From Candidatus Eiseniibacteriota bacterium (GTDB lineage Bacteria > Orphanbacterota > Orphanbacteria > Orphanbacterales > Orphanbacteraceae): a stretch of DNA of 64,000 nt. Made by a program: the position numbers and the translations under genes. The stretch spans positions 24,173 to 88,172 of the forward strand of contig JAJRWB010000012.1 of NCBI GenBank assembly GCA_024276995.1. The letters are read 5' to 3'. Shown here in pieces: positions 7,595 to 62,339 of this stretch; the stretch's first letter is position 1, and each line of letters begins with the position of its first letter. The notes under the pieces were generated by a model. That model saw nothing but the letters and a program-made list of their open reading frames with translations, was not told the origin of the DNA and did not search any database.

Positions 7595-9091
7595 ATGACC
7601 CGATCGGATTCCCTATGGATACGCAGGAAGACCGCCGAGGGAACGGCGTGGATCGTGCTTTCCAGCGGGAGCCGCAAGGCGGTCGGGTTTCTCTCGAGCA
7701 TCGTGCTCGCCCGGGTTCTCTACCCATCCGACTTCGGCCTGATCGCCATGGCGAACGTCGTGATCGCCCTTTTGGGCGTGTTCGACGGCTTCGGCGTCGC
7801 CGCGTTCCTTGTCTACAAGGGGGACGAAGGACGGGCGCACCACAACACGGCTTTCTGGATGAGCATCGCCCTCGGCACGTTTCTCACGGCGATCACCTGG
7901 TTCGCGGCGCCCCTCGCCGCGGCGGCATACGGCAACGCGGAGATCGGACCGATCCTGAGGGCGCTCAGTTTCGTCTTCCTCTTCGGTTCGTTCAGCCCGG
8001 TGCACCGTGCGCAGCTGCGCCGCGAAATGCGCTTCGCCGAGCTTTCCCGGAGGAATGTCGGCCTCGCCCTCGCCTCGTCGCTCATCACCGTGGCGCTCGC
8101 CCTTTCCGGGTTCGGCGTCTGGAGTTTCGTCGTCCCCGCCCTCATCCGTCCGCTGGCGGGAACGGTGATCTTCTGGAAGCTCTCCCCCTGGCGACCCCGC
8201 CTGCGTTTCCACGATCCCCACCTCCGGGAAATCATCTCGTACGGTCGGTTCGTCGTGGGAACCGACTTGGTCGAAATGGCGCTCCGCTACGCCGATTTCC
8301 TGCTCATCGGGCATCTGCTCGGGGCGGCGGCGCTCGGCGTGTACAGCTTCGCCTACTTCTCCGCCGTGGCGCTCTCCGGTTACGTCGAAGAACTGTGCCG
8401 CTTCGTCGCCTTCCCGGTGGTGGCGAGTCTCCGCGCGGACCGGGAAGAGCTCGAAAACTGGGGGCGCCAGTTCCTCCGCGCCCTTTCGCTTCTCGTCTTC
8501 CCGGTACTCGCCGGGCAGTTGGTCGTAGCGAGAGACTACATTCTCGTTCTCTACGGCGAACGCTGGGCGGAGGCGATCGGCCCGTTCCGTATTCTCCTCC
8601 TTCTCGGGCTGTTCACCGCTTTCGCCCGCCCGGCGGTGCCGATGCTCCGCGCGGCGGGAAGGCCGGAACTTCCTTTCCGGATCACCCTGGTCACCCTTCC
8701 TCTTCTCGTCGCCCTCCTCTGGTTCACGGTGCCGGGCGGCGTCGAGGCGGCGGCGCTCACCGTGGGCCTCGTTCTCGGCGCATCCCGTGTGGGGATGTTG
8801 CTCCTGGCGATGAAGACACTCGGGCTGTCGCTTCGCCGGGTTCTTCGCGAAGGCCTCCCGTCGGCGACGGCGGCCGCCGTCTTCTGCGTGATCCTGGTCG
8901 CGGCCGATCGGTCGATCGTGCGCGTGGCGGCATCCCCGCTCCTTCGACTGCTCTTCGAGGTTCCCGTCGGCGCGGCGATCTATTTCGCGGTGCTGGCGCT
9001 CTTCTTCCCCGCGACGCTGCGTTGGGGTGCGGAGAGGGTCGCTTCCCTCCTGCCCGGAAGATCCGCCGCCGCGGGAGGGTCGCTCCGATGA
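7595..9091 (+). CDS. wzx: Wzx-type polysaccharide flippase (PST/MOP family)
   Basis: IVLARVLYPSDFGLIA, GFGVWSFV, DFLLIGHLLGAAALGVYSFA, LYGERWAEA; many TM segments. Confidence 0.88.
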   Translation: MTRSDSLWIRRKTAEGTAWIVLSSGSRKAVGFLSSIVLARVLYPSDFGLIAMANVVIALLGVFDGFGVAAFLVYKGDEGRAHHNTAFWMSIALGTFLTAITWFAAPLAAAAYGNAEIGPILRALSFVFLFGSFSPVHRAQLRREMRFAELSRRNVGLALASSLITVALALSGFGVWSFVVPALIRPLAGTVIFWKLSPWRPRLRFHDPHLREIISYGRFVVGTDLVEMALRYADFLLIGHLLGAAALGVYSFAYFSAVALSGYVEELCRFVAFPVVASLRADREELENWGRQFLRALSLLVFPVLAGQLVVARDYILVLYGERWAEAIGPFRILLLLGLFTAFARPAVPMLRAAGRPELPFRITLVTLPLLVALLWFTVPGGVEAAALTVGLVLGASRVGMLLLAMKTLGLSLRRVLREGLPSATAAAVFCVILVAADRSIVRVAASPLLRLLFEVPVGAAIYFAVLALFFPATLRWGAERVASLLPGRSAAAGGSLR

Positions 9092-52385: not shown

Positions 52386-54041
52386 CTATCGGAGGAGGGT
52401 GAGGCGCTTCACGGCTCTGGCGCCCGCATGATCCTCGAGAATGCCGTAGTACGTCCCCGTCGAAGCGGGATAGCCGTTCTGCGTGTAGCCATCCCAGGTG
52501 ATGCCCCCCCGGTCGGCGGCGGCCGGCGAGAGGGGTAGGAGACGCACCTGCCGCCCCGTGATGTCGACGATACGAATTCGAGCGTCACGCGAAAGGGGCT
52601 CGGACCGTTTCCCCTGAACAGAAACATGAAATGTGAATGACCGACCCGGGTTCGGCGCGACGAGGAAGAACTCCTCTTCCACCCGGCCGGATCCCGATCC
52701 CGATTCGACCGAAACGACGGCGCCGGCCCCGTAGACATACGACCGACCGGCGACGCCGTTCGACCACGCCCCCACGGCGAAGTCGGGGTTCGTGTCGCCG
52801 CTGAAGGAAAGCGCCGGCGAAGAAGGACTCCCCGCGACGGCATACCCGAACTGGTCGCCGATCGCCTCTCCCTGGATGGAGATCAGGTCTCCCGTCAGTG
52901 GAGGGGCTCCGCCCGGCGAGAGGAAAGCGAAGCCCGTATCGGCGCCTCCCTGGTTCGACCCCGGAACCCCGATGACCAGGTGATCGAAGCCACTGCCGGT
53001 CACGTCCCCGCAACCCGCCACGCTCCGGCCGAGCCAGTCATCTTCCGCCGACCCCCGGACGGTGAAATCGGCGGTCCCGTCGAGGAGGGATCCGCCGTAG
53101 AAGACGTATGCCGCGCCGGCGTCGAGAACGGCGCCAGTATTCGCGTACGGCGCGCCGACGGCGATGTCGAGTTCGCCGTCACCGTTGATGTCTCCGGCGG
53201 CCGCCACGGAGAGGCCGAACTGGTCTCCCGCCGCCGCTCCGGCGACGGTCCAGTCGGCGAGGGTGTCGAGCGACGGCCCGCCGGAATAGACGTAGGCCGC
53301 CCCCTCCCACGTGTGGAGCGCGCTCGAGCGTGGAGCCCCGATGAGCAGGTCGTCCCCCGCGATGCCGTCGACATTGCCCGGCCCGGCGATCGCACCGCCG
53401 AACTGATCGCCCGCCGCCGCGCCGTGAAGGACGAGATCGGCCGTGCCGTCCGGCACAACTCCCCCGAAGAAGACATAGACCGTTCCATTGACCGTGCGCG
53501 GCGCCCCGACGGCGAAATCCATGTAGCCGTCGCCGTTGAGGTCACCCGCGGCGCCGACCGCCCTGCCGAGATAGTCGCCGGCCGCCGTGCCGGTGATGAT
53601 CACGTCGGCGACGGCGTCCATCGGGTTGCCGCCGAGAAAGAGATATGCCCTGCCGGCGCTCGCCCCCGCGGTGCTGTCCAGGAACGCGCCGACCAAGAGG
53701 TCATCGTAATGATCGCCGTTCACGTCGCCCACCCATGCCACGGCGGCGCCGAAAAAGCTTCCCGGATCGCCGGTGATCTCGAGGTCGGCGACTCCGGCCG
53801 GAACCGCCCGGCCGAAGAAGATGGAAACCTTGCCCGCGTTCTGTCCCGCTTCGTCGCTCGTGCTCGAGCCGACGGCGAGATCGGCCCTCCCGTCGCCGTT
53901 CGCGTCTCCACCGAGAGTGAGCGCGATGCCGAACTGTTCACCGGCGACATTGCCGTCCCAGGAAGCGAGAAGATCGACCTGTGAAAAGGCGGGCGGGACG
54001 GAGGCGGAAACCAGGATCAGGATGACAGCCGGAAGCTTCAT
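52386..54041 (-). CDS. FG-GAP (integrin-alpha-like) beta-propeller protein with FlgD/T9SS-type CTD
   Basis: Signal peptide; seven GDxNGDGxxDxxVG-type repeats; C-terminal PNP...DITGRQVR...WDG...GTYY. Confidence 0.9.
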   Translation of the reverse strand: MKLPAVILILVSASVPPAFSQVDLLASWDGNVAGEQFGIALTLGGDANGDGRADLAVGSSTSDEAGQNAGKVSIFFGRAVPAGVADLEITGDPGSFFGAAVAWVGDVNGDHYDDLLVGAFLDSTAGASAGRAYLFLGGNPMDAVADVIITGTAAGDYLGRAVGAAGDLNGDGYMDFAVGAPRTVNGTVYVFFGGVVPDGTADLVLHGAAAGDQFGGAIAGPGNVDGIAGDDLLIGAPRSSALHTWEGAAYVYSGGPSLDTLADWTVAGAAAGDQFGLSVAAAGDINGDGELDIAVGAPYANTGAVLDAGAAYVFYGGSLLDGTADFTVRGSAEDDWLGRSVAGCGDVTGSGFDHLVIGVPGSNQGGADTGFAFLSPGGAPPLTGDLISIQGEAIGDQFGYAVAGSPSSPALSFSGDTNPDFAVGAWSNGVAGRSYVYGAGAVVSVESGSGSGRVEEEFFLVAPNPGRSFTFHVSVQGKRSEPLSRDARIRIVDITGRQVRLLPLSPAAADRGGITWDGYTQNGYPASTGTYYGILEDHAGARAVKRLTLLR

Positions 54042-54068
54042 GTTGTAACCTCCCTCCCGAACGGGACG

Positions 54069-54101
54069 AAAAAGGGGAGGCCGGGCGCGACGCCCGGCCT
54101 C
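54069..54101 (-). terminator. intrinsic terminator
   Basis: Perfect 11-bp stem GAGGCCGGGCG-TCG-CGCCCGGCCTC then CCCTTTTT. Confidence 0.8.
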
Positions 54102-54115
54102 TGTTGAAGCGCGGC

Positions 54116-54598
54116 CTAGAACCGCTCTTTCTGGACGTGGCCCATCGCTTTCCGAACCGCGAAGGCGACGCGCGCGGCAAGGCCGACGGTCTGCGTTCCG
54201 GACCCGCCGCAATCGTTGATTGTCAGCGAAGCGGTGTCGTTCACGCTCCCGCCCGAATCGGTGGCGGTGGCGTCGATGGTCAGCGCTCCGGGTGCCGTCA
54301 ACGGCGGAACGACGAGCGCCACTTCATCGGAAACGACTTCACCCGCGGCCAGCTCGAGCGTGCCGACAACGGGGCCGAAGGACGTGCCGTTGAAATCGAT
54401 CATCACGCTGAGTTCGACCTGCTCGGCATCCGCGCCGACATTCTCCAGAGAGAAGAAGAAACTCACATCGTCGCCCGGGCACGCCTGGGCCGGGTCGAAG
54501 GCGATGTTCAGCGCGACGTCGGCGAACGATGTCGCGGGAACGAGAATCAATGCGAAGAGAGCGACGGCCAGGCCTGCGGTGGTCATGATGTTCTTCAA
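54116..54598 (-). CDS. small secreted Ig-like protein (160 aa)
   Basis: TTG start 7 nt after GGAGG; signal peptide ending TSFA-D; PGDDVSFFFSLENVG beta-sandwich pattern; two Cys; basic C-terminal tail. Confidence 0.75.
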   Translation of the reverse strand: MKNIMTTAGLAVALFALILVPATSFADVALNIAFDPAQACPGDDVSFFFSLENVGADAEQVELSVMIDFNGTSFGPVVGTLELAAGEVVSDEVALVVPPLTAPGALTIDATATDSGGSVNDTASLTINDCGGSGTQTVGLAARVAFAVRKAMGHVQKERF

Positions 54599-54870
54599 CT
54601 TTTTTCCTCCTGTGGAATCCCTCCTTAACATCGGGATCGGGATTCCGATTCGTGTTAACGCCACGGGTAGGAATTGCGGACATCGAATCTCGAGGGGGCG
54701 GGACATTGCGAACGGAGGAAGGCGGCCTCCGTGGAGACAACTCCTACCCCGTATTGCCATACCCGCGACGGCCGGCTGTCCGCCCGTCCCGGGGACCACG
54801 GGGCCGCCCCCCGACCCCCGTACAACCCCGGTTGCAGGCGGTTTACGAAGGCGGTCGCCCCTCGAGGACA

Positions 54871-54904
54871 GACACTTCATTCCCTGTTACACCTGTACGG
54901 AAAA
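54871..54904 (-). promoter_or_regulatory. candidate ECF promoter, copy 2
   Basis: TTTTCCGTACAGG-TGTAACAGG-GAATGAAG-TGTC; 22/34 ungapped identity to 56763-56796. Confidence 0.55.
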
Positions 54905-54969
54905 AGCGCGGGGATTTCCCAAGGATTCCTCTTCAGATCCTGGATTTCCCCGGCCGCGCCGCCCCCCTT

Positions 54970-55815
54970 CTACTCGCCCCGGCCGGACGTGTCCGACCCG
55001 GCCTCGAGGCGGAATCGGACCAGCTCGGTCCGATACTCCCGCCCGTCTTCGAGGACGACTTCGAGCCACCACGAGTACTCCCCGCGGTCGAGAAGACCGT
55101 CTCGACGGGTCAGCGTCACTGTCGTCGCGGCGGTTTCGATCGTGGCCACGGGAGAACCGTCGCTTCCGACCACGCGGAGGCGATAGAGAACGGCGCCGGG
55201 CACGGAACGCCATTCGAAGGAGATCTCTCCGGCGGGCCCCCGCCGGATTTCTCCCGTGGGGAAGAGGAGCGTCTCTTTCTCGAGACCGGACGAGAGGCCG
55301 CGGTGATCGCGTTTGATATCGGTCTCCCGCTGCGAGTACCAGATTCCCGTCGCGAGGAGGACGAGGACCGAGGCGGCCGCCAGGCCCGACCGGAAGAGGG
55401 GGCCCTTTCGCAACCTTCCGCCGACCGCCGGGCCGCGCCGGCGCCTGTGCCCATCACGGCCGCCGATCGCGACGGCGTCGCGGATCATCGACTCGGTCGC
55501 TTCCACCTCCTCGGCCCGGTCCGCCGCCGTCGATTCCACGGCGGACCGGCAGATCACGCAGCGTTCCAGGTGAGATTCCGTCAGTTCCAACACGGCGCCG
55601 TCGAGGTTGCCTTCGGAATAGGCTCCCAGAACGAGGGCGCCGGGATGATCGTCGCTGTTCCAGCCCGATCCCTCCTTCAGGAACTCGAATGCGGAAGCAC
55701 ACTTCCCGCAGTACCTCATGTGTGCCCGGGCCGACTCGAGAGAGGAACCGGCAAGTTCACCGTCGAAGAGCATCTCCAATGCTTCGGCATCGATACATTC
55801 CCGTTCAGTTTTCAT
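54970..55815 (-). CDS. membrane anti-sigma factor with two zf-HC2 motifs
   Basis: HMRYCGKC and HLERCVIC; TM GLAAASVLVLLATGIWY; C-terminal FN3-like FEWRSVPGA..YRL...GEYSWWLEV; overlaps the sigma stop. Confidence 0.82.
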   Translation of the reverse strand: MKTERECIDAEALEMLFDGELAGSSLESARAHMRYCGKCASAFEFLKEGSGWNSDDHPGALVLGAYSEGNLDGAVLELTESHLERCVICRSAVESTAADRAEEVEATESMIRDAVAIGGRDGHRRRRGPAVGGRLRKGPLFRSGLAAASVLVLLATGIWYSQRETDIKRDHRGLSSGLEKETLLFPTGEIRRGPAGEISFEWRSVPGAVLYRLRVVGSDGSPVATIETAATTVTLTRRDGLLDRGEYSWWLEVVLEDGREYRTELVRFRLEAGSDTSGRGE

Positions 55816-56617
55816 AGTTCATCTCTTTTCGCAGCAGTTTCGTGATCCGTGCGATCCTCGGGTACACGCTCTTGTAATGTTCCATTCCAATTTCTCCGGC
55901 GATCTCACGTGCGGTCTTTCCATCTTCGAAGCGGAGCCGGGCGATTTTCCTCTCTTCGGGGGCGAGTCTTTCCAGCGCCGCGAGGTATCTCTCCCGGATC
56001 TGTGCGAGTTCCACCCAGCGATCGGGCGATGCGGGGGTGAAACCGATCGGCACCCGGCTTTCGATGATGTCCCGCATCTCGTCTTCGTCGAATGAAAGGG
56101 GGGCCTGCCTTCGAAAGTGGTAGTCGTGGGCGAGATTGGTTCTGTAGACGCTCGTCAGGCTTTCCTCGATCGACCGGATATGGGGCGCGAAATCTCTCAT
56201 TCGCATCTGGATGCCGTACCGGCTGTTGAGCGTCTCGATCACTTCCGCATAAGAAAGGCCGTCCCAGTAGACGAGAACGAAAATCTTGCGACTGAGCGGC
56301 GGCAGTGCTCCGATCGCCCGAGGCATCGTCCGGCGCCCCAGCCTCGAACGGATCGAGTCGATCGTCAGGTTCCGCGTAATCAGCTTCAACCACGTCGGGA
56401 AGCTGCAGAGCTTGTCGCCATCCCCGTCGCCATAGGCGAGAAGGCGCCTGCCGTTCTCCTCCGCCAGCTTCTGCAGCACATAGAGATAAACGTCCATCCG
56501 CTCATCGTCGTCGTCGATCAGCAGGGCGATCGATCGAAGGATGACAGGTGTGTAATCCCGGACGAAGCGTTCCCAACCCGCCACGGGATCGGTTCGAAGC
56601 AGGTGAATCAGATCCAT
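55805..56617 (-). CDS. ECF-type sigma-70 family factor with a large internal insertion
   Basis: sigma2: WERFVRDY...SFPTWLKLITRNLTID; sigma4: ALERLAPEERKIARLRFEDGKTAREIA; start uncertain. Confidence 0.85.
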   Translation of the reverse strand: MDLIHLLRTDPVAGWERFVRDYTPVILRSIALLIDDDDERMDVYLYVLQKLAEENGRRLLAYGDGDGDKLCSFPTWLKLITRNLTIDSIRSRLGRRTMPRAIGALPPLSRKIFVLVYWDGLSYAEVIETLNSRYGIQMRMRDFAPHIRSIEESLTSVYRTNLAHDYHFRRQAPLSFDEDEMRDIIESRVPIGFTPASPDRWVELAQIRERYLAALERLAPEERKIARLRFEDGKTAREIAGEIGMEHYKSVYPRIARITKLLRKEMNYEN

Positions 56618-56762
56618 CTCGGAGCCGTCCCCCTTTACCGGCGCGGGCGGCTCCCGGTGATGGGGCCGGCGAATCGTTTCTCGAGAAGTGCCCGGTATAA
56701 TGAACATATCGGTCGTGAATCTCCCTGTCCCGCGATTTCGACAATCACGCGGGAGACCGGTC

Positions 56763-56796
56763 GACGAACCACCTCCTGGTCTTCCTTTACGGAAAA
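56763..56796 (-). promoter_or_regulatory. candidate ECF promoter, copy 1 (autoregulatory)
   Basis: TTTTCCGTAAAGG-AAGACCAGG-AGGTGGTT-CGTC upstream of the sigma gene. Confidence 0.55.
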
Positions 56797-56835
56797 TCAC
56801 GCGGCGATTCGAAGAGAATCATGCGGGGATTCGAA
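56792..56835. repeat. 22-bp tandem direct repeat (2 copies, 19/22 identical)
   Basis: Minus strand TTCGAATCCCCGCATGATTCTC / TTCGAATCGCCGCGTGATTTTC. Confidence 0.75.
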
Positions 56836-56866
56836 AAAAGATCCGCAATCTAACTCTCTATAATAC

Positions 56867-56895
56867 TTGACGTTAGGCGTTCCGCGTGATATCAT
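56867..56895 (+). promoter_or_regulatory. sigma70 promoter
   Basis: TTGACG-N17-TATCAT with TGn extension. Confidence 0.7.
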
Positions 56896-56907
56896 GATCG
56901 TGTCATC

Positions 56908-57741
56908 ATGAAGAATCGAAACTATCTTCTTCTCCTGCCGGCGCTGCTGGCCGCCGTCTCGTTTTCCTTCGCGGGGAAGCCTGCGGTCTTCTCGAGCGGC
57001 CAGTGCAAAACGGTCTGGGAGAATTCGTCGCCCAGGCTCTATTCCATCGTCCGGAACAACCTCTTCGTTCCGGTACACGTTTCGTACACTTTCGACGGTC
57101 CCGGCGTTTCGCAAAGCGGCTTCCTTTCCATCCAGGCGAGAGACCAAGATTCGCTCTACGTGCAGGTGCCGTCTCTTCCCCTTGGAAGTCACGACTTTGT
57201 TCTCGCCCTGTGGGATACTTCCGCCGTTCCCGACACCCTCTTCTGGACGAGCACGTCATCCGTTCTGGTCGTCGATTCGACGCTCTTCCTTTCGGTGGAG
57301 CCCGATTTCTTCCCCGCGGTGATCGATGGAGATTCGCCTCTCACCTATCCGGCGACACCGAAGAAGACAGTGGTCAAGGTTCCCAAGAACGCTTCCTTCT
57401 CTGATCCCCGTTCGTCGAGCATCTCCTGGAGCTTCTACATCACGAATGCCGACCCGAACGACCCCGGAAACTTGCTTGTCGTTTCGCCCGACTCGGGGAG
57501 CGTCGTGGCGATTCCCGGAGAAGAGTTTTCGGTCTTGACTTTCCTCGACGCCGAGTCACCGGTCGCGCCGGGAACCATCAATACTCTCAACATGCTCGTT
57601 TCTATCCAGGGCACGACGATGCTTCACGTCTGCACCCCGGTGGTCACCGATCAGCTGGGTGCTCTTCCGATAGCGACGGGTGTGCCGGATGCCGAACAGG
57701 AACGTTCTTCCTGGGGCGGGATCAAGACGATTTTTCGGTAA
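56908..57741 (+). CDS. secreted hypothetical protein, beta-rich, ending in SWGGIKTIFR
   Basis: MKNRNYLLLLPALLAAVSFSFA signal peptide; two Cys. Confidence 0.75.
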   Translation: MKNRNYLLLLPALLAAVSFSFAGKPAVFSSGQCKTVWENSSPRLYSIVRNNLFVPVHVSYTFDGPGVSQSGFLSIQARDQDSLYVQVPSLPLGSHDFVLALWDTSAVPDTLFWTSTSSVLVVDSTLFLSVEPDFFPAVIDGDSPLTYPATPKKTVVKVPKNASFSDPRSSSISWSFYITNADPNDPGNLLVVSPDSGSVVAIPGEEFSVLTFLDAESPVAPGTINTLNMLVSIQGTTMLHVCTPVVTDQLGALPIATGVPDAEQERSSWGGIKTIFR

Positions 57742-57753
57742 ACGCCGTCCGTT

Positions 57754-60700
57754 CTAGTTCCGGAGAAGGACGAATCCCGCCCAGTAGTACGGGTTCCGGT
57801 AGTCTTTTCGCTTCCACGGACCGGTTCGAATTCGATCCTTTCTCAGTTCCCGCTGTGCTTCGCTCAGCGCGGAGCGGTTGCTCCGCCCGTCGACGATCCG
57901 GCGGTAGAACCGGACGGCGAACTCCGATGTGGCCCGGTCGTCCACGGGCCAAAGCGTGGCGACCACAGCGTCCGTGCCGGCGTGAAGGAACGCTCCCGTG
58001 AGCCCGATGGGGGCGTATCCCTCCGGGGAGTCCGATCGGTACCCGGCGCCGAGTGCCGTCTCGCAGGCGCCGAGAAAGACGAGCGGAGCGTCGAGACGCA
58101 TCTGGATAATCTCGTACACCGAAAGGCGTCCGTCCTCCCCGCCGCCCCCGGCGAGTTCGACATATGAATAGAGAGGATGAACCGGATCGACGACCCCGTG
58201 CGACGCGATGTGGATGTAGTCGCCCGGTTCGCCCGCCTTTCCGAAAAGTGCTTCCCCGGCATCCTTTCCCACAAGGATGGTGCGCCGGTTTCGTGGAAAG
58301 AGTTTGCCGATCTTTCGCGCCTCCTCGCCGACGTGGGGAAGCTTCTCCTCCCGCTCACCGGGATATGCGAAGATCGTCACTCCCTTTGCGGGACGGCTCT
58401 TCTTCCGCAAGAACGGAGCGAACGACCCGCGCCGCCGGCACAATTCGAATCGATCGCCGAGCCAGGCGATCGGGCCCGCGTCGACGGCGTCCGGGGGCGC
58501 ATCGGCGACCAGCGCGGCGAACGGGAGCGACCGAAGAGGGCCGCCGGGAATGACGGTCACTCTTCGCGCACCGTCGAGAAAAGTGGAGACGGGGTTGATT
58601 AGGATATTGTAAAGGCCTCGAAGGACCGGGACGGTTTCTTCGATCGGGTTTCGCGGATCGGAAAGGAGGCTCCGGGCGAGCCGAACGCGCCCGTCGAGGT
58701 CATCCGAGGCGCAGGAGGTCGTTACGGCGAAGAGCGTTTCGGCGGTGAGCACGAAAATGACCATCGAATCGGCGGTGTTGAAGTATTCCAGGAGGATTTC
58801 GCCGTCATCGAGGCTCTCCTGCATTTCCCGTCGCCCGTTGTTCCCGCTCCACGGCGGCGAAGAATCGCCCCTCCTTCCGTCCGGCAGACGACCGAGGCTC
58901 TCTTCGTGTCTCCGGTACGCCTCTTCCAGTTCACGCCTCAAGTTGTCGGCGCGATCCGGGTCCCCCTGTTCGAGGGCGCTCCTCATCTCCTCGCGGAGCC
59001 GGTCGATGGCGGCACGCCTTTCCCGCTCCTCTCTGGCGGCGGTGTTCTCCGACTCGCTCCTTCCCGCAAGAGGCGAAGCGGCTACGTTGTCGAGGAAAGA
59101 TCGCATCCTCGACCGCCCGGCGGCCAGGAAGGCCTTGTCTACGTCGCCGCGGCGCAGATAGAGAAGAACGAGCGCTTCGTAGGGGCTTCGCTTGGTCTCG
59201 AAGAAACCGGCGCGCCCTCTCGGCGTCACGAACTCGGAGCGGAGGCGCTCGATCTTCTCGATCGCCGACTCGAAAGAGCCGGCGGCCTCCTCGTCCATGG
59301 CGAGATGCCGTTCGACTTTCCCCTTCACGTAATCGAACCGCCAAGCGAGTTCGGGAAGCTGCTCGAGGATCGGTGAGGACGTCGCGCTGTCGAGAACCGA
59401 CAACGCGTCGGCGAACTCTTTCCTTTTTACGTCGATCCGGGAACGAAGGAGGGCGTAATTGAGCTTCCCGATGATTAGATCGGTCCGAACGGCCAGGTCG
59501 TTGTACTCGTCGGCGATCTTCGAGGCCTCTTCGATACGGTTTTCGGAGAAGAGGAGGTCGGCGTATTCCGCGAGGGCGTTGACGACGGCGCCCGCGTCGC
59601 CGAGCAGGCGATACCGCTCGCACGCCTGCTTCATCGATTCGCGGGCCCGCTCCTTCTCTCCAATGGTGTAGCGCGTCCGGGCGATCGCCAGAAGGGCGCC
59701 CGCCTCGGCCTCGACGTCCTCCATGTCGCGGGCGATGGAGCGTGCCGCCTCGAAATTCTCCAGCGCTTTTCCCAAATCCCCTTCGGCGAGGGCGAGACGC
59801 CCGATCATTTCATAGGTGTACCGCCGGATCGTCGGGAGGGAGAGCGAATCGGCCGCTTCGATAAGGCGCTTCGCCATGGTTCGGGCGAGGCGGTACTCCC
59901 CCGTCTCGACGAGCGACGCCGTCTGGTTGAGCCGCGCCAGGAGGAAGCCGGGGGCGTTTCCGGCGACGCTGTCGATCCGGGCGGCCTCCTCGTAGCGCAC
60001 CGCGGCGAGACGGTGATCTCCCACCGTTCCGGCAAGCACCCCCCTGGCGTTCAACAGATCGCTTCGAAGGGGGGCGAGGTTATTCTTTTCGATGACCGTT
60101 TCCGCCGTCGCGAAGGAAGCCCGGGCACCGAAAAAATCGCCGAATCGCCGCGCGAGATTCCCCAGGGCGATCGCCGTTTGCGAAATGCCGACGGGGTTTT
60201 CCATTTCCCGGTGAATCCGAAGCGCTTCCTCCAGGTGGTCGCGCGCATGCGGATAGTCCCCGCGGAGCGCCTCGATCCAGGCGATCGACTGGAGCGTTTC
60301 CGCGATATCCTGCGACGCATTGAGACGGCGGAAGAGCGCGAGCGCCTCGACATACTGGCTCAGTGCTTTGTGATAGTCGCCCGAACTCCAGTCGATCTGT
60401 GCCAGGTAACCGAGCGTCGCCGTCCGGTTGTAGAGATCGCCCTCTTCCTCCTGGAGTTTCGAAGCCGCCTTCAGCAGGCGGGACGCCCTTTCGAGATCGC
60501 CCCGGTTGAGCGCGGAAAGACCGACATAGCTGCTCGCCAACCCTTCGCGGTAGCGGTCTCCGGTTTCCCGAAAGAGTGTGACCGCGGAGTCGAGCATCGC
60601 CTCCGCGGGCACGTATTCGAGGCGCTGAAGGAGACCGATCCCCTTCAGGTAGTATCTCTCGCCCCGGCGCCACTTTGTCTTCTCCTCATCATCGAAGGCG

Positions 60701-61068
60701 CGAAAACGCGATTCGATCCTTGCCGGAAGCGTATCCCCGGCGGCGAGTGATCGCCTTGCCCAGACGGCCGCACCGCGCCGGAACGCCTCCGCCTCGTCTC
60801 CGCTTGTGTCGAAAGCGAGGCGATGGAGAAGAACGGTCACGTCGGAGCGATACGATGGATAGGCGGCCAAGAGGGAATCGATGATACCAATATCGGTCGC
60901 CCCAGCCGCCGATGCCGCGGCGCGGGCGATGTCGGTCTTGCTCGGCTCGCCGGCGGGGAGAAGGCAAGGCGTCAGGACAAGCGCGATCGCCGGGACGAGG
61001 ACGAAGCATCGAGCGGAGAAACGGAGCGACGGCGTGCGGTGATCGCTCGGCGGGAACCGGGAAATCAG
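57754..61068 (-). CDS. TPR-CHAT (caspase-like) protease with N-terminal signal-like segment; start uncertain
   Basis: Long TPR array; IERLR; LLEYF; LYNILINPV; IPGGPLRSLPFAAL; HIASHG (His); LVFLGACET (Cys); TLWPVDD; NPYYWAGF. Confidence 0.9.
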   Translation of the reverse strand: MISRFPPSDHRTPSLRFSARCFVLVPAIALVLTPCLLPAGEPSKTDIARAAASAAGATDIGIIDSLLAAYPSYRSDVTVLLHRLAFDTSGDEAEAFRRGAAVWARRSLAAGDTLPARIESRFRAFDDEEKTKWRRGERYYLKGIGLLQRLEYVPAEAMLDSAVTLFRETGDRYREGLASSYVGLSALNRGDLERASRLLKAASKLQEEEGDLYNRTATLGYLAQIDWSSGDYHKALSQYVEALALFRRLNASQDIAETLQSIAWIEALRGDYPHARDHLEEALRIHREMENPVGISQTAIALGNLARRFGDFFGARASFATAETVIEKNNLAPLRSDLLNARGVLAGTVGDHRLAAVRYEEAARIDSVAGNAPGFLLARLNQTASLVETGEYRLARTMAKRLIEAADSLSLPTIRRYTYEMIGRLALAEGDLGKALENFEAARSIARDMEDVEAEAGALLAIARTRYTIGEKERARESMKQACERYRLLGDAGAVVNALAEYADLLFSENRIEEASKIADEYNDLAVRTDLIIGKLNYALLRSRIDVKRKEFADALSVLDSATSSPILEQLPELAWRFDYVKGKVERHLAMDEEAAGSFESAIEKIERLRSEFVTPRGRAGFFETKRSPYEALVLLYLRRGDVDKAFLAAGRSRMRSFLDNVAASPLAGRSESENTAAREERERRAAIDRLREEMRSALEQGDPDRADNLRRELEEAYRRHEESLGRLPDGRRGDSSPPWSGNNGRREMQESLDDGEILLEYFNTADSMVIFVLTAETLFAVTTSCASDDLDGRVRLARSLLSDPRNPIEETVPVLRGLYNILINPVSTFLDGARRVTVIPGGPLRSLPFAALVADAPPDAVDAGPIAWLGDRFELCRRRGSFAPFLRKKSRPAKGVTIFAYPGEREEKLPHVGEEARKIGKLFPRNRRTILVGKDAGEALFGKAGEPGDYIHIASHGVVDPVHPLYSYVELAGGGGEDGRLSVYEIIQMRLDAPLVFLGACETALGAGYRSDSPEGYAPIGLTGAFLHAGTDAVVATLWPVDDRATSEFAVRFYRRIVDGRSNRSALSEAQRELRKDRIRTGPWKRKDYRNPYYWAGFVLLRN

Positions 61069-62339
61069 GTGTCGTATCCCCCTTTCTCCTGTTCTTTGTC
61101 CACCCCCTCTTCCCCCTCCGATCGCGCAATGATCGCCGCGCCGCACGAGTCGCTGAACACGTTCACCGATGTGCGGAACATGTCGAGCGGCCGGTCGATG
61201 GCGAGCATGATCCCGACGACGGCGTCCACTTCGGGGCCGCGCAGGTTCACCGATTCGAGGACGAGGAAGATGATCACCAGCCCCGCGCTCGGCACCGCAG
61301 CCGCGCCGATCGAGGCGAGAAGCGCCGTGATCACCACGACGAGCTGCTGGCCGAGGGAAAGATCGATGCCGAGAACCTGGGCGATGAAGAGGACGCCGGC
61401 GCACTCATACAGCGCCGTGCCGTCCATGTTCACGGTGGCCCCCATGGGGAGGACGAACGACGAGACACGGTTCGATACGCCGACTTTCTTCTCCACCGCG
61501 CGGAGCGTTACCGGCAGCGTGGCGCCCGACGAGCTGGTGGAGAACGCGAGGGTGAGCGGTTCGAGCATGTTCCGGAAGTGGATTCGCGGGCGGATCCTGC
61601 CGAGGACGATCAGGAGAAGCGGGAGGGTGATGAAAAGGTGCACCGCGAGGCCGGAAGCGATGGTCAGCATGTAAAGCGCCATCGCCCGAAATGAATCGAA
61701 ACCGGTGAGACCGACGACCCGTGCGATCAGTCCGAACACGCCGATCGGGGCGAGCCGGATGATCCAGCCGGTCATCTTCATCATGGCACCGAACCCGGCG
61801 TTGAAGAAACGGGAAAGCGTTTCACGCGGTCCTTCCGGGAGAGAGGCGACCGCCGCGCCGAAGAGAATGCAGAAGAAAATGAGGGCGAGCATGTCCGGTT
61901 TCGCCGCGGCATGAACGACGTTTTCGGGGACCATGCGCATGAGAAGATCGGCGGGCGTCCCCGGTTCGGCGAGTTCGGGGATCGTCGCGCCGCCGGCGCC
62001 GGCGATGTTCGCCCCCGCCCCGGGGCGGATCACGTTGACCAGCACGAGACCGACCAGTATGGCGAGAAGGCTGGAGAGGATGTAATAGCCGAGGGTCTTG
62101 GAGAACATCCGGCCGAGGTTCCGCCCGCCCCCCACCGACGCGACGCCGGAGATGATCGAAAAAAGGACGAGCGGGACGATCACCATCTTGAGGAGGCGGA
62201 CGAAGAGGAGGCCGATCCAGCCGACGCGCGGAACGATGTCCGCCCCGCCCGCCGCCCCGGCGGCGATGCCGAGCGCCATGGCGATGAACACCTGCCAGTG
62301 GAGACGACCGTACCAGCGCTGCGCCGCGACGGCGCTCAT
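61065..62339 (-). CDS. dicarboxylate/amino acid:cation symporter (DAACS, GltP-like)
   Basis: FVRLLKMVIVPLV, AFSTSSSGATLP, GATVNMDGTALY, DRPLDMFRTSVNV..D. Confidence 0.95.
   Translation of the reverse strand: MSAVAAQRWYGRLHWQVFIAMALGIAAGAAGGADIVPRVGWIGLLFVRLLKMVIVPLVLFSIISGVASVGGGRNLGRMFSKTLGYYILSSLLAILVGLVLVNVIRPGAGANIAGAGGATIPELAEPGTPADLLMRMVPENVVHAAAKPDMLALIFFCILFGAAVASLPEGPRETLSRFFNAGFGAMMKMTGWIIRLAPIGVFGLIARVVGLTGFDSFRAMALYMLTIASGLAVHLFITLPLLLIVLGRIRPRIHFRNMLEPLTLAFSTSSSGATLPVTLRAVEKKVGVSNRVSSFVLPMGATVNMDGTALYECAGVLFIAQVLGIDLSLGQQLVVVITALLASIGAAAVPSAGLVIIFLVLESVNLRGPEVDAVVGIMLAIDRPLDMFRTSVNVFSDSCGAAIIARSEGEEGVDKEQEKGGYDT

Follow-up and report, generated by a model that had tools for sequence, protein, structure and literature searches.

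In the excerpts of the literature used here, promoters of extracytoplasmic function (ECF) sigma factors follow an AAc/cGT pattern with a spacer of 14-17 bp (PMC6061681), and ECF sigma factors usually autoregulate (PMC7826278). The promoters of DdvS from Myxococcus xanthus read GTAA-N16-CGT, as confirmed by rapid amplification of 5' cDNA ends (5'-RACE; PMC6061681). In the autoregulatory sigW promoter of Bacillus subtilis, CGTA is the -10 element and confers selectivity for sigmaW, and T runs in the spacer matter (PMC5758882). Here, we analyzed a motif that occurs twice in a stretch of 64,000 nucleotides from a Candidatus Eiseniibacteriota bacterium (contig JAJRWB010000012.1; hereafter the window, whose positions are used throughout), once upstream of an operon encoding a sigma factor and an anti-sigma factor and once upstream of a gene for a small secreted immunoglobulin (Ig)-like protein. 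The motif is real and conserved, and it most likely represents an autoregulatory promoter of the ordinary ECF type that has been duplicated once. Based on sequence comparison, we put at roughly two in three the probability that the motif common to both sites forms the core of an ECF-type promoter, present at the sigma's own operon and at the secreted Ig-like gene.

The two copies are located on the minus strand at 56796-56763 (TTTTCCGTAAAGGAAGACCAGGAGGTGGTTCGTC) and 54904-54871 (TTTTCCGTACAGGTGTAACAGGGAATGAAGTGTC), and both are intergenic and upstream of genes. These 34-nt stretches had been reported in an initial annotation of the window; their sequences and coordinates were exact, and both the gap-free identity of 22 out of 34 positions and the distance of 17 nt from mAGG to YGTC at both sites were confirmed. 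The AATC.CCGCG that was said to precede both sites is present at both, as AATC(G/C)CCGCG, but it stands at differing distances from the T run (3 versus 2 bases), and the upstream part of the two sites aligns only with a 1-nt gap. The 13-mer TTTTCCGTAMAGG (TTTTCCGTAmAGG) had two exact matches in the whole genome of 3,758,509 bases, both at these sites, where base composition gives an expectation of 0.079. Allowing one mismatch gave 16 more matches, compared with 3 for the reversed control; none of the 16 had the flanks, and most appeared coding-like by eye. When the regions upstream of the two genes (290 and 371 nt) were aligned locally, AATC..CCGTAmAGG was singled out with a score of 26, which 11 of 500 dinucleotide shuffles also attained. 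Taken alone, the last 21 nt of the 34-mers, with 10 identical positions, are marginal (binomial P = 0.034). At the level of sequence, the strong evidence is the uniqueness across the genome together with the recurrence at orthologous sigma genes, and not the 34-nt similarity itself.

The recurrence was followed in a collection of 10 species genomes for the phylum, in which the window genome is referred to as G000, the genomes of relatives include G002 and G006, and loci are numbered L0xx. Full-length relatives of the sigma were found in five of the nine other Eisenbacteria genomes and in 17 of 301 sampled Gemmatimonadota genomes; the latter tally includes one unpublished genome (G225), which was used nowhere else. 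An alignment-based search for orthologues returned 18 loci, a single-protein search of the genome contigs gave no additional sigma orthologue, and a metagenome search yielded only two distant relatives (32-33% identical), which were taken no further. In a maximum-likelihood tree of 28 proteins the window sigma and four others (37-49% identical) formed one clade, here called clade A, with a support of 97/96. A sixth clade-A gene is partial and near-identical to L011 and was not in the tree; L012, L017, L019, L059, L062, L063 and L073 were excluded because they were partial or duplicate, failed the length filter or were unpublished. Upstream of all six clade-A sigma genes, an A-rich box and, after it, CCGT(A/T)yAGG were present in the same orientation; the five genes besides the window's come from three related Eisenbacteria genomes. 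This distribution supports the proposal of the initial annotation that the motif marks an ECF-type promoter of the sigma/anti-sigma operon. As the motif-bearing sigmas in the tree form a single clade, one gain of the motif suffices to explain it.

The test on the orthologues was not circular, because the 9-mer core CCGTAMAGG was drawn from the window only. On its own this core occurred at background frequency (65 matches versus 64 for the control in G000, 83 versus 86 in G002 and 60 versus 77 in G006), and the chance of finding it within 150 nt upstream of a given gene was about 1.2-1.4e-3. It was nevertheless found, exactly, upstream of three of the five orthologous sigma genes (G002:C4:485468, G006:C346:1739 and G006:C232:1346). 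The fourth orthologue (L031) reads CCGTATAGG, with one mismatch to the core, and the fifth (L026) reads CCGTTTGGA. The two window sites and those of L022, L025, L024, L031 and L026 were aligned with MAFFT, and the invariant columns of the seven sites were AA in the upstream box, CCGT, and two G. The distance from AA to the downstream CGT is 16 nt in six sites; in the seventh it is 17 nt. CCGT was present in 7/7 sites, continuing as CGTA in six and as CGTT in one, and the AA, likewise present in 7/7, was directly followed by C (AAAAC) in two sites, the others reading AAT(C). At protein identities of 37-49%, the surrounding intergenic sequence had fully diverged while the distance from AA to CGT had stayed fixed.

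The invariant AA and CCGT and their spacing of 16/17 nt lead us to place the -35 element in the GAAwTC box and the -10 element in CCGTA. All aligned sites have an AA(C)-type -35, a CGT-type -10 and a spacer within 14-17 bp, and the motif immediately precedes the sigma gene and is conserved together with the clade, as autoregulation would have it. At the sigma operon (all on the minus strand), the proposed -35 GAATC is at 56806-56810, with the AA at 56809-56808 placed 16 nt upstream of CGT; the conserved core CCGTAAAGG is at 56784-56792 and contains the proposed -10 CGTA (56791-56788). Between them, next to the -10, is a spacer block GATTTT (56793-56798) with a putative role; GATTww blocks were seen in four of the seven sites, corresponding to three of the four sigma-gene lineages, and the second window site has CTTTTT. 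At this second site, also on the minus strand, the proposed -35 GGAAATC is at 54913-54919 (AA at 54917-54916, again 16 nt upstream of CGT), and the T run and core TTTTTCCGTACAGG are at 54892-54905, with the proposed -10 CGTA at 54899-54896. The usual ECF geometry predicts transcription starts at ~56780 and ~54888. We infer the promoter status, the -35/-10 assignment and the reading by this sigma and no other from the sequence.

The initial annotation had arranged the same bases differently, with mAGG as the -35, YGTC 17 nt downstream as the -10, a CAGG in the spacer that may be read by the extra helix-turn-helix (HTH) of the sigma, and starts near 56755 and 54863. In a softer form of this arrangement, the downstream elements would make up an additional ECF-like promoter in tandem, GGAAG-N14-CGTC, present solely upstream of the sigma genes of the window and L026. 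ECF promoters often have -10 elements of the GTC type, CGTC/TGTC stands exactly 17 nt after mAGG at the window sites and CGTC 19 nt after the core in L026, and GGAA is found 15 nt (window sigma site) and 17-18 nt (L026) ahead of CGTC. However, YGTC was present in only three of the seven sites, namely both sites in the window and that of L026, where it is displaced by 2 nt; it was missing from L022, L025, L024 and L031, which make up the other two lineages, and formed no conserved column. The second window site also has no AA-type -35 in the right register in the core. In L022 and L025 the start of the sigma gene (GGAGG-N5/6-ATG) begins 21 nt after the core and occupies the very position of the supposed -10. 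A -10 downstream of the core would there give a transcript without a ribosome-binding site, so that the -10 has to be sought in the core. The remainder of the 34-nt motif at the sigma site (56763-56783, minus strand; CCAGG at 56779-56775 and CGTC at 56766-56763), which lies at or after the predicted start, was not conserved in L022, L025, L024 and L031. The corresponding remainder at the second site (54871-54891, minus strand) holds CAGG at 54886-54883 and TGTC at 54874-54871. The downstream identity of 10/21 (P = 0.034) fits similarity left over after a duplication. Taken together, both forms of the downstream arrangement are very unlikely. In our assignment, the proposed -35 is the GAAwTC box, of which the initial annotation had mentioned only the AATC as a preceding sequence, and the proposed -10 is CCGTA within its first block; the CAGG would fall at about +1 to +6, outside the spacer, and is not conserved; the predicted starts move to the positions given above. 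Nor is novelty of the promoter supported, since AA-N16-CGT(A) is a common ECF architecture in the excerpted descriptions (PMC6061681, PMC5758882). The initial idea points to the right kind of element but misassigns its parts.

Several observations weigh against an ECF-type promoter in two copies. The motif is backed by only four independent lineages and one intragenomic duplicate, and one of these lineages (L026) has CGTT with AGG out of register. The -35 is A-rich without a fixed word (GAATC, GAAATC, AAAATC or AAAAC), the canonical AAC being present in two of the seven sites, and the low-information form AA-N16-CGTAHAGG had 12 matches in G000 compared with 7 for the control. CGTC/TGTC 17-19 nt downstream (window sites and L026) is left unexplained by the AA-N16-CGT model. 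Aligned with each other, the two window regions show no more than moderate significance, at the 11 of 500 shuffles given above, and an unbiased 9-mer footprint test on five upstream regions fell short of significance, as the observed maximum was reached in 181 of 300 shuffles. Lastly, part of the likeness between the window copies reflects recent duplication and not selection, as CCGCG and the T run are absent from the orthologues. The modest pairwise significance, the failed k-mer test and the spacer bases shared by the window copies and absent from the orthologues would also suit a scenario in which there is no shared function, the second copy being the decaying remnant of a local duplication and the orthologue matches being due to chance. 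Against this stand the core at three of five orthologous genes, with a chance of ~1e-3 each, and the AA kept at a fixed distance of 16 nt despite fully diverged intergenic surroundings, and we regard it as very improbable.

Instead of a promoter core, the motif might be an operator to which a regulatory protein binds, or some other element acting as DNA or RNA. In favour of this, the sigma site has TTTTCC-N5-GGAAGA, an inverted repeat in five of six positions, and AATC-N7-GATT, and CCGCGTGATT is repeated three times around it. The inverted repeats are lost at the second window site and in the orthologues, though, and the conserved columns form two short blocks, as is typical of a bipartite promoter. 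A search of 54400-57000 against Rfam gave no match at E <= 1, and the folding of the predicted sigma-gene leader was ordinary (z = -0.27). An operator or structural element is thus highly improbable as the explanation of the conserved columns. Around the sigma site, two tandem 22-nt copies of TTCGAATCsCCGCrTGATTyTC (56792-56835 on the minus strand, as 56835-56814 and 56813-56792) form a repeat family with 86% identity; the distal copy (56835-56814) duplicates the -35 box and the spacer and is not followed by CGTA. A third CCGCGTGATTGTC is situated at 56740-56752 (minus strand) within a small hairpin, CCCGCG-N13-CGCGGG, in the predicted sigma leader. The second site has extra GAAATCC and GGAATCC boxes, one each 10 and 30 nt upstream of its proposed -35.

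One-mismatch, spaced-pattern and looser searches of G000 revealed no further convincing motif site. AAWC-N12-15-CCGTAHAGG had three further matches in G000, all inside long open reading frames, and a looser pattern had 98, of which the AT-richest were inspected; one of these was in 23S rRNA and none had the full core. Across the 10 genomes the spaced pattern gave 18 matches, comprising 6 known sites and 12 that were coding-like or unrelated. As no other site was found in G000, the regulon of the sigma that reads the motif appears not to extend beyond this locus, and this speaks for the sigma that the locus encodes.

The motif could still be read by another sigma, either a different ECF sigma or the housekeeping sigma, for which TAyAGG would serve as a weak -10 in combination with an activator at the GAATC boxes. 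The genome has many candidates of the sigma-70 family (17 at first look), and GAATC-like boxes repeat in helical phase upstream of both window sites in an activator-like manner; however, the upstream repeats were not kept between L022 and L025. The gene of another ECF sigma should itself bear the motif, and in G000 the full motif is found only at this locus. In the sister clades of clade A, the upstream regions of four clade-B loci of Eisenbacteria (L028, L027, L029 and L014) and of 22 Gemmatimonadota loci, read by eye, showed TTGnnn-N16/17-TATAxx or nothing similar, and the clade-A motif was not seen before any of them. In favour of another sigma, sister-clade sigma genes carry TTG- and TATA-type boxes in the equivalent position, L077 has TTGACA-N17-TAGGTT with CCG just before, and L066 has TATAGG, like L031. 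The clade-A sites, in contrast, have TCGAAT or GGGAAA as the -35 and TAyAGG as the -10, without a TTG-type -35 and without T at the last -10 position, and are not of the housekeeping sigma70 type; a sigma-70 scan of the minus strand between 53900 and 57100 found no housekeeping promoter. Recognition by another sigma therefore seems unlikely.

As for the sister-clade boxes themselves, the sequences upstream of L064, L071, L072, L075, L082 and other Gemmatimonadota genes and of L027, L028 and L029 read TTGnnn-N16/17-(gc)TATATCC, TATAGG or TATAGT. The 8-mer form of the word was rare across whole genomes, with 10 matches in five genomes compared with 8 for the control, and five of the 10 were at these sigma genes. 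The conservation of the boxes across genera was stronger than expected for a plain housekeeping promoter. A further copy of the word was found upstream of a hisG-like gene, which makes it probable that these promoters are of the housekeeping type.

The proposed target of the second promoter copy is the Ig-like gene at 54116-54598 on the minus strand, which encodes a small secreted, CARDB-like protein of 160 aa and has a TTG start at 54598 behind AGGAGG; its match to CARDB scored 17.2 bits, which is under the cut-off. In the closest relative, L026, whose sigma is 49% identical to that of the window, orthologues of this gene (51% identical) and of the FG-GAP gene that starts at 54041 (56% identical) follow the anti-sigma gene, and the 97-nt gap after the anti-sigma gene holds no motif. 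The second copy in the window, where the gap between the anti-sigma gene and the Ig-like gene is about 370 nt, therefore precedes genes that were already in the operon of this sigma. The link that the initial annotation had drawn between the motif and the gene at 54598 holds, as the orthologue of this gene sits in the sigma operon of L026. The spacer bases CCGCG and the T run, common to both window copies and missing from the orthologues, suggest that the autoregulatory promoter was duplicated locally. The further inclusion of the gene at 54041 in the regulon is doubtful. This gene (52386-54041, minus strand) encodes an FG-GAP repeat protein with a FlgD_ig-like C-terminus, and it is separated from the Ig-like gene by a strong terminator-like hairpin (54101-54077, with an 11-bp stem that has 10 G-C pairs) and a T run, which together span 54067-54101 on the minus strand. 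L026 has a hairpin at the equivalent place (8290-8335), so that co-transcription of the FG-GAP gene is uncertain.

From the predicted start, the Ig-like gene would have a long, GC-rich 5' leader of ~290 nt (54599-54888, minus strand), with a minimum free energy z of -2.07; 5 of 200 shuffles folded as well. Its counterpart in L026 is the 97-nt gap only. An ATG at 54880, inside the 34-nt motif, opens a frame of 254 aa that is continuous with the Ig-like gene (54116-54880, minus strand). This extension is probably untranslated, as it is rich in Gly, Arg and Pro and the L026 orthologue starts at the signal peptide.

The sigma gene (55805-56707, minus strand) probably starts at ATG 56707, its conserved core starts from ATG 56617, and its stop codon at 55805 lies within an 11-nt overlap with the anti-sigma gene (54970-55815, minus strand). 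The latter encodes a zf-HC2 protein with one membrane helix and an extracytoplasmic domain. An AlphaFold model of the sigma (pLDDT 83, from a 28-row alignment; residue numbers refer to the 270-aa form) showed sigma2 at residues 1-94, a four-helix middle domain at 100-171 and a canonical sigma4 at 199-270. The C-terminal sigma4 matched region 4 of sigmaE on -35 DNA with a Z of 10.0 and an rmsd of 1.8 over 68 residues. When folded alone (pLDDT 85), the middle domain mostly matched sigma region 4 with Z values of 5-7, which are rated uncertain, and Pfam shows two region-4 stretches in the sigma. These results support the extra HTH that the initial annotation had noticed. An ECF sigma has sigma2 and sigma4 only; both are clear here, yet the additional domain lies between them. 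TIGR02937, the sigma70-ECF superfamily model, was the only model passed (63.7 bits, with a cut-off of 42.9). Among solved structures, the closest match in sequence to the sigma family profile was SigW (5wuq, E 5.9e-9); assignment to the SigW equivalog (NCBIfam NF007223 / TIGR02948) was rejected, as the scores of 31.4 and 28.2 bits compare with cut-offs of 209 and 243.1. Eisenbacteria and Gemmatimonadota have homologues with a length of 250-280 aa, and look-alike clusters are listed for Acidobacteriota. Literature searches on a duplicated sigma region 4, judged by title or abstract, and on Eisenbacteria with sigma factors returned nothing relevant, and the main text of PMC7826278 has no mention of Gemmatimonadetes, CHAT, a long linker or an insertion.

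This domain arrangement could mean that the sigma belongs to an undescribed three-domain family with a tripartite promoter. The middle domain, which is placed like sigma3, would then read the GATTww block or T run (about -18 to -13) as a third element similar to an extended -10. The idea arises because this block upstream of CCGT is the sole conserved promoter feature left over. We consider the tripartite arrangement improbable, and the recognition of a third element, which would go beyond ordinary ECF sigmas, is equally doubtful.

Under the bipartite ECF-type promoter that we favour, the membrane anti-sigma (55815-54970) would release the sigma (56707-55805), and RNA polymerase loaded with this sigma would bind both promoter copies. 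Transcripts would begin some 8-9 nt downstream of CGTA, at ~56780 and ~54888, and the outcome would be positive autoregulation together with induction of the Ig-like protein, the FG-GAP protein being induced only by read-through of the terminator. The second promoter copy, ahead of the gene at 54598, would be specific to this lineage.

On the far side of the sigma operon, a divergent gene (56908-57741, plus strand) encodes a secreted protein of 277 aa and has its own sigma70-like promoter, TTGACG-17-TATCAT with TG upstream (56867-56895, plus strand). This promoter lies just 13 nt ahead of the ATG, so that either the leader would be very short or translation would start at a later codon. Beyond the divergent gene is a TPR-CHAT gene on the minus strand (57754-61404; CHAT E 2.3e-53). 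The separate CHAT protease may have a role in cleavage of the anti-sigma. The TPR-CHAT protein, the divergent secreted protein, the sigma and the zf-HC2 anti-sigma form a four-gene module that is conserved in the window (54970-61404), L026, L022 and L031, and it occurs twice in one relative. The divergent secreted protein of the module is ~280 aa long, has no Pfam family and ends at the C-terminus in W..(L/I)K.(L/I)FR.

If confirmed, this would be the first promoter and minimal regulon, consisting of the sigma operon and the secreted Ig-like protein, for a sigma of the uncultured phylum Eisenbacteria, and a clear example of a regulon that grew when an autoregulatory promoter was duplicated within one locus. 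The promoter type as such is ordinary; less ordinary is a sigma with an extra sigma4-like domain in a module with a separate TPR-CHAT protease gene. The corrected boxes show where transcription starts should be sought and which bases should matter.

Compared with the autoregulatory promoter of B. subtilis sigmaW (tgaAAC ... CGTA), as given in the excerpted description (PMC5758882), the window promoter is likewise bipartite, combining a CGTA -10 with an A-rich -35 whose last base is C, in front of the operon of its own sigma and anti-sigma. It differs in that the -35 is GAAwTC or AAAAC and not TGAAAC, the T run adjoins the -10 and not the -35, and the conserved block runs past CGTA (yAGG). The sigma itself is also unlike SigW, as it has the extra middle domain and fails the SigW equivalog models. 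The promoters of the sister clades (Eisenbacteria clade B and Gemmatimonadota) share the equivalent position and an overlap of the -10 word (TATAGG/TATAGT versus CGTATAGG), but they have a TTG-type -35 and TATA, whereas clade A lacks TTG and has CCGT. The resemblance to M. xanthus DdvS/DdvA, again as far as the excerpts of the sources describe this system, extends to the AA-N16-CGT spacing, the autoregulated sigma/anti-sigma operon and the few extra promoter copies nearby in the locus, as well as to the association with a TPR-CHAT protease module (PMC6061681, PMC11506125). In DdvA, however, TPR-CHAT is the extracytoplasmic part of the anti-sigma, whereas here it is encoded by the separate upstream gene at 57754-61404. 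The targets also differ, being CRISPR-Cas/CBASS for DdvS and proteins of cell-surface type here. Compared by description and not by sequence, DdvS is a two-domain ECF sigma of 182 residues, while the sigma of this locus has 270-300 residues and three domains.

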